The position numbers and the translations under genes are program-made. Under the pieces are notes generated by a model, which did no database searches, was not told where the DNA came from, and was given only the letters and a program-made list of their open reading frames with translations. DNA of 64,000 nucleotides, taken from Escherichia phage sutha. Positions 21,926 through 29,018 of this stretch are shown in pieces (position 1 is the first letter of the stretch; each line of letters begins with the position of its first letter). The DNA is taken from the sequence record PV245934.1, one strand, 5' to 3'.

Positions 21926-22041
21926 TACATTTTGAACTTTTTAGACATTCCGTTGACGTTAACCAAAGAAGCCAAGATTTGAGAAACTTCGTTTTCCTCT
22001 TCTTTTGATTCTTCTACAAGGAATTGGTTAAATCCAGTCAT
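21925..22041 (-). CDS. small hypothetical protein, 38 aa
   Basis: Hand-found ORF MTGFNQFLVEESKEEENEV... with ATGA overlap onto the alt stop; below track cutoff. Confidence 0.35.
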   Translation of the reverse strand: MTGFNQFLVEESKEEENEVSQILASLVNVNGMSKKFKM

Positions 22042-24131
22042 TGAACGAACTTGTAAGGAATGTTTGCAATATCTATGCAAGATGCAATAATTCCAAGAGA
22101 TGATTCTACTTTTTGTTTAACATTTGATGAAACAAATGATGCAAAGTCAACTCTGTCTTCTATTTCAATATCACCTGTCATTGCAACTACTTCACCAGTT
22201 TCCATTAAACGGTCACCGTCATAAATTACTGATTCGGTGAGTTCTTCTGTAGTCATAACTTCAGCTTGAATGAGTTTTGTATTATTAGATATTATTCCGT
22301 CATTATTAGAAGCATCAGTTATTTTATTAACTTTGACCATCAATCCGCGTGGTAGAATAACTTCAGCTTCTGATGCTATTCCGAGACTTCCTGGATATAC
22401 AACATTAACTTTATGAGCTCCATCAATTGCCCATCCTATTTGAACTTTAACGTATTCAGGATTTTCTTTATACGCTCTTATTTCGCTTGGATTAATAGTT
22501 ATTCCTTCTTCATTTTTATCAACTGTTAATTCATTACGAGCTTCTGGTTCTAAAAGACCAATACCAGCATGTGTAATTCCAAAACGTCCAAAAATGATAG
22601 GAGTTAAAGAAGTAGATACAAAATTTCTGAAATAGAACACTTTATTTTTAACTAGTGCTTCGTATATAGGAGCAGTCATGCTTTGAGCACGATAAACTGT
22701 AATGCCTTCTGGTATACGGTCACCATTTTCAAAGGCTGAATCTAAATTATTTATCGCAGATTCAATTTCTTTTTCACTCATTACCTCATATCGTTCTGGA
22801 TTGTAGCGGCCTAAAAGAAGATTATTGATGTCGGTATAACCTGAGCCACAGTATTCTCTGATGCCGCGCTTTTGTGATGGAGTATATTTAGAACCATCAC
22901 GGGCAATAGTAATATCAATCATTGGACCTGCACCAATTCCAGAAAAACTATAAATCATTCGTTTGAGGAATACAGTTTTTGCTGCGTTCCAGCAATTTTT
23001 AGTTATTTCTTCCCAGACTTCATCTGGCTGTCCTTTGCGGGTTTTATTATGTGTATCAAGCCATTTATCTTTATATTCTTCAAAGAATTGATTAACAGCT
23101 GCTGCGTATTTCTCTAAACATTTTATTGAAGTAGTTGGTTCATTTTTGATCGCATTAAGAATTACATCTTTAATTTTTTCAGAAACTTCATCAACCTCAC
23201 TTTTTGAAACGAATTTATAGTAATAGCGAAGTTCATTTACAGTTCCTTCGGCAATAATTTTTGCTGCCTTAGTTTTAGAAGCTAATGAATTAATTCCAAG
23301 CTTCATTTCTTCTGCTTCGGGAATTAAAGGAGCGGTAGCAGGTTTATTGAAATTAGCTGCGGTAGATTCATATTTCTGGAATAATTCACTTTCAAATCTA
23401 GAAGATTCCAATGACTGACTTTGTGCAATTGCTCTACGGGAAATTTTAACTTTAACGATTACAGCTTGGTCAGAACGTTTATCATTTTCTTGCGCAATAG
23501 ATGCAGCAATTGCCTCATTTTTAGTTACTTGAGCTCCGGTATCTTTATTGATATAAACATCACCGACCTTCGATTCAACTTTAGTAAAGAGCTCGGTGCT
23601 AATTTCCGGAACTCCTGGAATGTCTTCTAGTGATACATTTTTGCGATGTATAAGAATATATGCATACTTTTTATCATAATCCCAGAGTTCCTTAAGAAGG
23701 ACGTATCTGCCACCTGAACGACTACGGATAAGTCTATCAGCAATAAGTTGAATTTGACGAGCTTGACCAGCAGTTTTAGACTTAAGAATACGGAGCATAC
23801 AGGCATCAATTTTATACTGACGCATCGTTTGCATTGCAACAGTAAAAACTGAATTGATGTAATTAATTGGGCTTGGACCGAGACCTTTTAATTTAGCAAT
23901 TGAACCTTTAGCAGTTAATGTAAAAGGAACAATATGCATCATTTTATCGCCCATCTTTAAATCACGGTTAGTATCACCTCCAGATGTATAGGTACATAAA
24001 CGAAAGCCTGGTTGTTCAATCGCATCATCAACATGAACTGAAAAAATTTGCGGTATTTTCTTCTTTGGATTCAAGTTTGTAATCGGAAGAGTAGTATCTT
24101 CGTCAAATAATTCTGTAATAAGTTCCATCAT
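22038..24131 (-). CDS. alt: Alt ADP-ribosyltransferase, virion-packaged
   Basis: 697 aa; MELITELFDEDTTLPITNL... as T4 Alt; ART-like segments YRAQSMT and FVSTSL; true start may be the second Met. Confidence 0.9.
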   Translation of the reverse strand: MMELITELFDEDTTLPITNLNPKKKIPQIFSVHVDDAIEQPGFRLCTYTSGGDTNRDLKMGDKMMHIVPFTLTAKGSIAKLKGLGPSPINYINSVFTVAMQTMRQYKIDACMLRILKSKTAGQARQIQLIADRLIRSRSGGRYVLLKELWDYDKKYAYILIHRKNVSLEDIPGVPEISTELFTKVESKVGDVYINKDTGAQVTKNEAIAASIAQENDKRSDQAVIVKVKISRRAIAQSQSLESSRFESELFQKYESTAANFNKPATAPLIPEAEEMKLGINSLASKTKAAKIIAEGTVNELRYYYKFVSKSEVDEVSEKIKDVILNAIKNEPTTSIKCLEKYAAAVNQFFEEYKDKWLDTHNKTRKGQPDEVWEEITKNCWNAAKTVFLKRMIYSFSGIGAGPMIDITIARDGSKYTPSQKRGIREYCGSGYTDINNLLLGRYNPERYEVMSEKEIESAINNLDSAFENGDRIPEGITVYRAQSMTAPIYEALVKNKVFYFRNFVSTSLTPIIFGRFGITHAGIGLLEPEARNELTVDKNEEGITINPSEIRAYKENPEYVKVQIGWAIDGAHKVNVVYPGSLGIASEAEVILPRGLMVKVNKITDASNNDGIISNNTKLIQAEVMTTEELTESVIYDGDRLMETGEVVAMTGDIEIEDRVDFASFVSSNVKQKVESSLGIIASCIDIANIPYKFVQ

Positions 24132-25836: not shown

Positions 25837-26102
25837 TGCTCATCCTTCAAAGTTTGGTTTACAGCTCTATTATAAATCAATTCATCATTAAGCTCAGGCA
25901 AAGACTTATGATATGTAGTTCTAACTTTATTTCCTTGCATCCAGTGCTTGACGTAAATGAAACCTTGCTCTACACATTTTTTAAAAATTCGTTCGTCTTT
26001 TTGAGCTCGGAATTCTGGATTGCATCTAAAAAATTGATTTACGTGACCGTAATCACGTGTAGTATTACCTTCATTTTCATAAATAGTGTGAACGACAAAC
26101 AT
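25833..26102 (-). CDS. hypothetical protein (30.1 position)
   Basis: 89 aa, start overlaps the next ORF's stop and stop overlaps gene 30 start. Confidence 0.65.
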   Translation of the reverse strand: MFVVHTIYENEGNTTRDYGHVNQFFRCNPEFRAQKDERIFKKCVEQGFIYVKHWMQGNKVRTTYHKSLPELNDELIYNRAVNQTLKDEQ

Positions 26103-26965
26103 TAGAATGCTCCTTGGAAAATATTATCACCACTAGTAAATCTATTAAAATACCCTGCATCACCAGGCTTAGTATAACTCCACGTATGGAATGGATTCAT
26201 ATGATACGGGTGTGTATAATATGGATTATATGGATGTGTATAATATGGATTATACGGATTAAATCCAGGAGTTCTCCAGGTAGTGTTCCAACGAAAAGAA
26301 TCGTTTTTAACCATCTTCTCAATTACATCTTTTATAGCTTTTTCACTATCAAAACTTTTTTTATTTTCCTTCGGCGAAAAAAGCTTATTTTCTACATCAT
26401 TCCATGTATAAACTCGCTGAGCGGTTTTTGGAATATTGTCACGCTCTCCTCGCGCCATCCAATAAACAGGAACATTTAATATTTCACTCGCATGGTCGCA
26501 GTGGTGAGCGAGATCGTCAATATAACAAATTACGTTATATTTCTCTTTTGCCTTTTTGAATAACTCTTCTTTTGAAGAATCATGACCACACATCATTACT
26601 TCTGAGAAGGCACCAGGAAAAAGAGCATTTAAATTAAATTGACGATTCAACAGAGCGTCAATAGAATCACCCAATGCTGTAACAGCTACAAAATTATAAT
26701 CTTCTTTTAATTTGTTAATTACACACAGGGCATCTTTATACGGAGACAAGTAACGAATAAAATCTGAACGATTGTATTTTTCAATTAACTTGACGCCAAG
26801 TTCTTCATCACAATTAAAGAGTTTACCCGGAGAAATAAATTTCTCATCTTGGATCATTTTTAAAATATGTTCTAACGGAAGATTATATTTCTGAGCAAAA
26901 TAAGGAAGGCCTGATTGCCAGCTTAAACATACTCCATCAATATCAGTCAAAATAGTAGGCTTCAT
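26102..26965 (-). CDS. HAD-superfamily-like hydrolase with C-terminal PYNPYYTH tandem repeat (30.2 position)
   Basis: 287 aa; N-term MKPTILTDIDGVCL has HAD motif I DxDGV; C-term NPYNPYYTHPYNPYYTHPYHMNPFHTW encoded by a tandem 24-bp repeat at 26211-26257. Confidence 0.7.
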   Translation of the reverse strand: MKPTILTDIDGVCLSWQSGLPYFAQKYNLPLEHILKMIQDEKFISPGKLFNCDEELGVKLIEKYNRSDFIRYLSPYKDALCVINKLKEDYNFVAVTALGDSIDALLNRQFNLNALFPGAFSEVMMCGHDSSKEELFKKAKEKYNVICYIDDLAHHCDHASEILNVPVYWMARGERDNIPKTAQRVYTWNDVENKLFSPKENKKSFDSEKAIKDVIEKMVKNDSFRWNTTWRTPGFNPYNPYYTHPYNPYYTHPYHMNPFHTWSYTKPGDAGYFNRFTSGDNIFQGAF

Positions 26966-27426
26966 AGAGAGTCTCTTAATAGATTTAACATATCAATAAA
27001 TTCAGCTTCGGTTAGTATTGTATCATCTTTTGTTAGACCACTAGCCATGCTGTGCTTCAAAACTTTTCCTTTCGAGGCTTGTAATGCATCGCGAAAGCCC
27101 TTGTTTTGGAACGCTGCTTCAAAATATGCATTTGTGTATAATTCTTTCCACGCCGGAGAGTATCTTGAAAACGGAACTCCAAGCCAGAAGAGGGTCCCAC
27201 GGTCCTGAGCTCTAGCATAAGACCTTCCAGCTTGTTGGGCGGCAAGCCCGGATAACCCAAATATACGACGTTGCTGTTCAACATTTTTCACCTTACATCC
27301 TTGGAGGAATCCTTCGAGACCTCCAAATTGGATACCATCCATAACAAAAGGCCATTGGGCGAAATTACTTAATGCACATGATGGCCATCTAAAATTGCTT
27401 CTTATCTCTAACTCAGACATTTTCAA
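26962..27426 (-). CDS. NADAR / YbiA-like (DUF1768) protein (30.3 position)
   Basis: 154 aa; LSNFAQWPFVMDGIQFGGLEGFLQGCKV aligns with E. coli YbiA FSNFAAWPIKVDGKTWPTSEHYFQAQKF as recalled. Confidence 0.65.
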   Translation of the reverse strand: MKMSELEIRSNFRWPSCALSNFAQWPFVMDGIQFGGLEGFLQGCKVKNVEQQRRIFGLSGLAAQQAGRSYARAQDRGTLFWLGVPFSRYSPAWKELYTNAYFEAAFQNKGFRDALQASKGKVLKHSMASGLTKDDTILTEAEFIDMLNLLRDSL

Positions 27427-27619
27427 TACTTATAATTTCAACATCAGCCCAATGACCATAGCAAGGAAGACGAAATTCAACTGGCCAGTTAGGGTCCTTT
27501 TCTAATATAATAGACTGAACTTGTGGCTCTTCATGTTCATCGGTATACGGACCTTTATACGTTACTTTATATGTAACCTTAATGTACTGAATTCCAAAAA
27601 TCTTATTAATTATATTCAT
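27413..27619 (-). CDS. hypothetical small early protein
   Basis: 68 aa, overlapping start/stop with neighbours. Confidence 0.55.
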   Translation of the reverse strand: MNIINKIFGIQYIKVTYKVTYKGPYTDEHEEPQVQSIILEKDPNWPVEFRLPCYGHWADVEIISIENV

Positions 27620-28965: not shown

Positions 28966-28995
28966 AACTTTATGCAATCTTTGGAAAATAAAAAA

Positions 28996-29013
28996 GGACT
29001 CCCGAAGGAGTCC
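28996..29013. terminator. hairpin GGACTCC-cgaa-GGAGTCC
   Basis: Perfect 7-bp stem with tetraloop and flanking A/T runs. Confidence 0.65.
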
Positions 29014-29018
29014 TCAAC

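Follow-up and report, generated by a model that had tools for sequence, protein, structure and literature searches.

The window analysed here is a stretch of 64,000 nucleotides from Escherichia phage sutha (PV245934.1), and it carries on its minus strand an intact ortholog of T4 gene 30.3. This gene very probably encodes an active AdfN, erasing DarT1-made guanine ADP-ribosylation from phage DNA. Orthology, intactness, the NADAR fold and the presence of the catalytic residues are established in this analysis. Activity and the counter-defence role are what we infer for the sutha allele, because it is 98% identical to the T4 and T2 alleles that have been assayed.

The mechanical ORF list gives a minus-strand ORF at 26962..27426, with a TTG start, 154 aa and the stop counted in the coordinates. 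An earlier note on this DNA had picked out the same ORF, which is real, and had left its strand unstated. Translation almost certainly begins not at the TTG but two codons further in, at the ATG at 27420, for a product of 152 aa. We chose this ATG because the annotated T4 start (MSELEIR..., 152 aa) coincides with it, and because the published catalytic residues then land exactly on E36 and K43. In ATGTCTGA, reading TTG AAA ATG TCT GA, this start overlaps the end (TGA) of the upstream gene 30.4, which suggests translational coupling inside one early transcription unit. The two codons TTG AAA probably lie outside translated gp30.3. The features of the region are the following.

26962..27420, minus strand: gene 30.3 (adfN), predicted 152-aa DNA ADP-ribosylglycohydrolase of the NADAR superfamily, from the ORF, the PF08010 match, T4/T2 identity and the NADAR fold; stop codon at 26962-26964
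27421..27426, minus strand: the two extra codons of the mechanical ORF, TTG AAA, within the 3' end of gene 30.4
27289..27372, minus strand: core NADAR motif LSNFAQWPFVMDGIQFGGLEGFLQGCKV, residues 17-44, with the invariant S18-N19-F20, E36 and Q40, plus K43; aligns to YbiA 29-56
27052..27054, minus strand: codon of H123, directly after the last beta-strand; His in 62/62 family members
26965..27009, minus strand: C-terminal helix, last 15 codons, E138-L152 (predicted helix 138-151), with no frameshift of the RB69 type
27413..27619, minus strand: upstream gene 30.4, whose stop overlaps the 30.3 start
26102..26965, minus strand: downstream gene 30.2, 287 aa, whose ATG overlaps the 30.3 stop (ATGA)

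Judged from the sequence, the gene is the ortholog of T4 gene 30.3 (adfN, anti-DarT factor NADAR) in a Tequatrovirus. Its product is identical to T4 gp30.3 (NP_049816) at 149 of 152 residues (98%), with all 152 residues aligned, and to the T2 allele also at 149/152. The three substitutions with respect to T4 are I104F, I125M and V144M, with M125 also found in the T2 and RB69 proteins. All three positions are variable columns among the 62 diverse homologues on which our family statistics are based. Relative to T4, 11 codons differ synonymously and 3 non-synonymously, a ratio consistent with purifying selection.

An internal out-of-frame ORF, 30.3', is annotated in T4 and lies here at 27057..27284(-). 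It encodes 75 aa; the T2 version has 68 aa and the RB69 version 34 aa. This stretch has 6 nucleotide differences from T4: 5 of them alter the 30.3' protein, and in the 30.3 frame a single codon is changed non-synonymously. By this comparison, 30.3' probably is unconstrained and not a conserved coding sequence.

The T4 gene order is kept around the gene, with 30 (DNA ligase), 30.1, 30.2, 30.3, 30.4, 30.5, 30.6, 30.7 and 30.8 all on the minus strand and with stops and starts overlapping along the run. The 2.5 kb surrounding gene 30.3 have 97-98% DNA identity with many Tequatrovirus genomes. The protein matches PF08010 (Phage_30_3) over profile positions 1-138 of 138, with E=1.8e-69 and 232.3 bits against a cutoff of 36. 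PHROGs assigns it to phrog_652, a function-unknown group, and the NCBIfam search with this protein gave no match. About 1,500 phage records contain a homologue, and their hosts include Escherichia, Klebsiella, Shigella, Aeromonas, Acinetobacter and Vibrio. Nearly all of these records say “hypothetical protein”.

Two neighbours differ from their T4 counterparts. Gene 30.2 encodes 287 aa here and 278 aa in T4. Its C-terminal part (about 26150..26300) has a 10-residue insertion that expands a Pro/Tyr-rich repeat, NPYNPYYTHPYNPYYTHPY in sutha and NPYNPY----------HPY in T4, and divergence is greater in the C-terminal tail than elsewhere in the protein. One related record names 30.2 as a 5'-3' deoxyribonucleotidase. 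The gene at the alt position, 22038..24131(-), encodes 697 aa, which is the size of the neighbouring T2 gene, and the T4 gene encodes 682 aa. This size suggests a T2-like arrangement of the alt region.

The earlier note placed the gene in the early region of the phage, and by position this holds; early expression in sutha is likewise inferred from position. In a promoter and terminator scan of the region, the promoter search found 27 sites, compared with 25.0 +/- 5.4 in shuffled sequence. Since this count is no higher than in shuffled sequence, it says nothing on expression. The best sigma-70-like site of the region is TTGACA-18-TAAAAT (11/12) at 28607-28578(-), in the last codons of 30.8 and upstream of 30.7. 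A strong terminator-like hairpin, with 9 pairs followed by a T-run, is found at 28994..29015(-), upstream of 30.8. Together, the hairpin and the TTGACA-18-TAAAAT site could mark the start of the transcription unit containing 30.3, with scan counts that are not above chance.

The earlier note had read the ORF as a NADAR, YbiA-like protein. The peptide it quoted, LSNFAQWPFVMDGIQFGGLEGFLQGCKV, is present at residues 17-44 in the 152-aa numbering. The YbiA motif it gave, FSNFAAWPIKVDGKTWPTSEHYFQAQKF, is correct and corresponds to residues 29-56 of E. coli K-12 YbiA, with 11 of the 28 residues identical between the two. It had also named the Pfam NADAR profile as a check, with a missing hit counting against this identity, and here the outcome is split. 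PF08719 (NADAR) misses this sequence, with no match at E<=1 and PF08010 as the only Pfam match, but the family does link to PF08719. Because the single gp30.3 sequence has no direct PF08719 match, the NADAR link needed tests at family level.

In these tests, 23 of the 62 family members matched PF08719, with a best E=1.5e-7. A search of all PDB sequences with the family profile (hmmsearch) found E. coli YbiA, with E=0.0074, and essentially nothing else. Comparing the family profile to YbiA with hhalign gave a probability of 94% and E=1.5e-7 over about residues 17-123. In the reverse direction, E. coli YbiA matches PF08010 with E=0.004. The single-sequence search of PDB sequences found no NADAR structure and returned a chance match only (3rjz, E=0.81). 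The AlphaFold2 model of gp30.3, predicted from an alignment that left out the T4 sequence row, has a pLDDT of 92.9 and a pTM of 0.88. It displays the YbiA fold, with core helices flanked by small sheets. Profile-profile comparison, reciprocal Pfam matches and the predicted fold support that gp30.3 belongs to the NADAR superfamily, and bear out the NADAR/YbiA-like identity.

Several residues are invariant among the 62 homologues, namely S18-N19-F20, E36, G37, F38, Q40 and H123, and K43 is present in 60 of them. In the family-profile alignments, E36, Q40 and K43 are matched by the corresponding E, Q and K in SEHYFQAQKF of YbiA. The E..(F/Y).Q..K motif, with its conserved ADP-ribose-contacting Glu and Lys, is thus present in gp30.3. 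One residue beyond the end of the hhalign alignment, H123 faces E125 of YbiA, and in the AlphaFold2 model the predicted strand 120-122 ends just before it. This residue stands where the YbiA family has its catalytic Glu and the DarT1-linked NADARs have Asp. A His at the last-strand position, replacing Glu/Asp, is the signature of phage (gp30.3) NADARs (Cihlova et al., PMC11125620). M125 of the allele here is two residues from H123. The active-site comparison suggested in the earlier note, where absent catalytic residues would have spoken against the assignment, therefore finds E36, K43 and H123 all in place.

The C-terminal end is also preserved. In the RB69 record, one additional T at nt 411/412 produces a TGA; this T is absent from the sutha gene, which reads ...CTAACCGAAGC... 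where RB69 has ...CTAACTTGAAGC... (TGA). With no frameshift of this type, the C-terminal helix (138-151 in the model) is intact. The insertion shortens the RB69 protein by 15 residues, which accounts for the DarTG1 sensitivity of RB69. A C-terminally truncated T4 protein has reduced activity and impaired rescue (PMC11825919).

The function of the T4 and T2 alleles has been described in detail. In vitro, the E. coli phage NADAR releases ADP-ribose from DNA when it is linked to guanosine and leaves the thymidine-linked form in place; in uninfected cells, this NADAR gives no rescue from DarT1 (Cihlova et al. 2024, PMC11125620). Resistance of T-even phages to DarTG1 was mapped to gene 30.3, renamed adfN (Johannesman et al., Nat Commun 2025, PMC11825919; preprint PMC11257639). 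In that work, T4 gp30.3 is both necessary and sufficient against DarTG1, deletion of adfN in T4 or T2 causes a four-log loss of plaquing on DarTG1 hosts, and RB69 is rescued by ectopic T4 AdfN (PMC11825919). DarT1-modified DNA loses its ADP-ribose when treated with purified AdfN and not with E36A, a two-hybrid assay detects no AdfN-DarT1 interaction, and AdfN is without effect on DarTG2 (PMC11825919). E36A and K43A impair the counter-defence of T4, with a loss of rescue that is partial, not complete, in the published version (PMC11825919). This partial loss means that catalysis may not rest on these two residues alone. AdfN is efficient only in T-even infections, which the authors credit to a putative preference for hydroxymethylated DNA (PMC11825919). 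Furthermore, in an independent T4 transposon screen (HIDEN-SEQ), insertions in 30.3/adfN are neutral on K-12 and are lost only on DarTG1 hosts (10.1101/2025.11.20.689424).

The earlier note had proposed a possible counter to DarT-type defences, and this is upheld by the 98% identity to T4 gp30.3, experimentally anti-DarTG1 (PMC11125620, PMC11825919, 10.1101/2025.11.20.689424). Its doubt over catalytic activity is answered by the published assays of the T4 protein, together with the catalytic residues present here.

On this basis, 30.3 would be expressed from an early/middle leftward transcription unit downstream of rIII, along with the other 30.x genes. Its product, a single-domain NADAR enzyme of 152 aa, would detach ADP-ribose from guanine in DNA by hydrolysis of the N-glycosidic bond. 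The ADP-ribose in question would be put on guanines of phage DNA by the host DarT1 toxin, part of the DarTG1 toxin-antitoxin defence. Its removal would restore genome replication and lead to normal plaquing on DarTG1 hosts. AdfN would thus reverse the damage with no binding of the toxin, and would leave untouched the thymine-linked ADP-ribose made by DarT2. In cells, it would be efficient only in T-even infections, probably through a preference for hydroxymethylcytosine DNA.

A broader role is conceivable, where the His-type phage NADAR would erase ADP-ribose from guanine bases generally, on hydroxymethylcytosine DNA and perhaps also on RNA, beyond its action against DarT1. The authors of the published work raised this as an idea, and in this window its sole support is the invariance of H123. 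We consider it rather unlikely. If true, such an eraser would guard T-even phages against undescribed defences that ADP-ribosylate DNA or RNA, or against toxins of competitors. The change from Glu/Asp to His would then be an adaptation tying the enzyme to modified phage DNA.

Three other explanations compete with an active AdfN directed against DarT1. Gp30.3 could be a housekeeping N-glycosidase of the YbiA type, clearing reactive riboflavin-pathway intermediates or another small ribosyl compound and not acting on DNA. The family, however, has His in place of the catalytic Glu of YbiA, a replacement that makes it a distinct subfamily (PMC11125620), and ADP-ribosylated DNA is a substrate of the T4 protein in vitro (PMC11825919). 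The only known phenotype of T4 30.3 is DarTG1 sensitivity (PMC11825919; 10.1101/2025.11.20.689424), and riboflavin damage control is of no obvious use to a lytic phage, so that a housekeeping role is extremely unlikely. Another possibility is that gp30.3 reverses or trims the ADP-ribosylation carried out by the phage's own Alt, ModA and ModB, with products on host proteins or RNA. The gp30.3 family is widespread in T4-like phages, and the 697-aa ORF at 22038..24131(-), a candidate alt by position and length, occupies the T4/T2 alt position 2.8 kb downstream on the same strand. This closeness is simply the conserved T4 gene order, however, and the NADARs characterised so far accept only ADP-ribose on guanine bases, while the residue modified by Alt and ModA is arginine. 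Deletion of adfN is without phenotype on hosts lacking DarTG1 (PMC11825919), and HIDEN-SEQ classes the gene as non-essential on K-12 (10.1101/2025.11.20.689424). In the literature, we found no direct published test of Alt-product processing by gp30.3. The processing of the phage's own Alt products, as suggested in the earlier note, gained no support, and we give such a role very little credence.

Non-catalytic action is a further alternative: the protein could neutralise the defence by binding the toxin or an ADP-ribosylated nucleic acid, or by sequestering either, as AdfA does. The partial rescue kept by E36A and K43A would agree with this, as would another phage NADAR, acting on Retron-Eco1, that needs no enzymatic activity (both PMC11825919). 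On the other hand, AdfN and DarT1 do not associate in the two-hybrid assay, the purified enzyme strips ADP-ribose from DNA while E36A does not (both PMC11825919), and the catalytic residues are invariant across the family. Sequestration is therefore scarcely credible as the mode of action. Even taken together, the three explanations remain improbable, since the published substrate specificity, phenotype and two-hybrid data contradict them. An active AdfN acting against DarT1 is the reading we retain.

In terms of biology, this adds nothing new, as the family, its activity, the catalytic residues and the counter-defence role are all already known from work published in 2023-2025. The practical value is a better annotation and a prediction of DarTG1 resistance. 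The gene should be called adfN (DNA ADP-ribosylglycohydrolase, anti-DarTG1). With its allele intact, the source phage is predicted to be DarTG1-resistant, unlike RB69, which matters for predicting host range and for selecting phages for therapy.

Some homologues stand out for contig size or protein length. A PF08010 homologue, 38% identical, is found on metagenome contigs L005 (6001-6468) and L006-L008, which measure up to 308 kb, the longest of the cluster being 424 kb. These large contigs are phage-like, with mostly small unannotated ORFs, and carry genes for a NUDIX hydrolase and a Thg1-like protein on the opposite strand, about 3-5 kb downstream of the homologue. The His-type NADAR family thus reaches jumbo-phage-like genomes. 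The phrog_652 profile is 296 positions long and gp30.3 covers 126-272 only, and some homologues have 201 aa (P0030, P0032), so that some family members carry an extra N-terminal region. A 201-aa homologue on contig L009 (823-1428) sits upstream of ribonucleotide reductase genes. These two unusual homologues (on contigs of 308-424 kb, and of 201 aa) were considered as bacterial DarT-linked members of PF08010 and rejected as such, both having a phage-like context and no DarT nearby.

Compared with known systems, the DarT1-associated NADAR antitoxin DarG1 (BC4488 family; Geobacter lovleyi NADAR, PDB 8bat) differs in several ways. The phage protein has no DarT partner and is an orphan: 30.3 is flanked by 30.2 and 30.4, ligase gene 30 lies farther downstream, and neither side has an adjacent DarT gene. 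With 152 residues versus 219, the phage protein does without the N-terminal extension of DarG1-type NADARs, its core starting at about residue 10, and it has His123 where they have Asp at the last-strand catalytic position. In addition, the phage protein cannot replace DarG1 as antitoxin in uninfected E. coli (PMC11825919, PMC11125620). E. coli YbiA (PF08719; PDB 2b3w) is about 20% identical to gp30.3 and has Glu125 where H123 is found here. It is chromosomal, annotated as a riboflavin-pathway N-glycosidase, and gives no protection from DarT1 in vivo (PMC11125620). The Phytophthora nicotianae NADAR (PDB 8bau, an ADP-ribose complex) is eukaryotic, has 189 residues and is 19% identical.

T-even phages have two further anti-DarTG factors, both non-homologous to AdfN (PMC11825919; 10.1101/2025.11.20.689424). 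AdfA, the anti-DarT1 factor of the gp61.2 type, is a non-enzyme that binds DarT1, and AdfM (T4 Tk.4, anti-DarTG2) is a macrodomain proposed to act on thymine-ADPr. Finally, the likeness to T4 gp30.3, AdfN itself (PF08010), extends to length, the start/stop overlaps with 30.4 and 30.2, genomic position, E36, K43, H123 and the C-terminal helix, with the two alleles separated by three substitutions that we call conservative.
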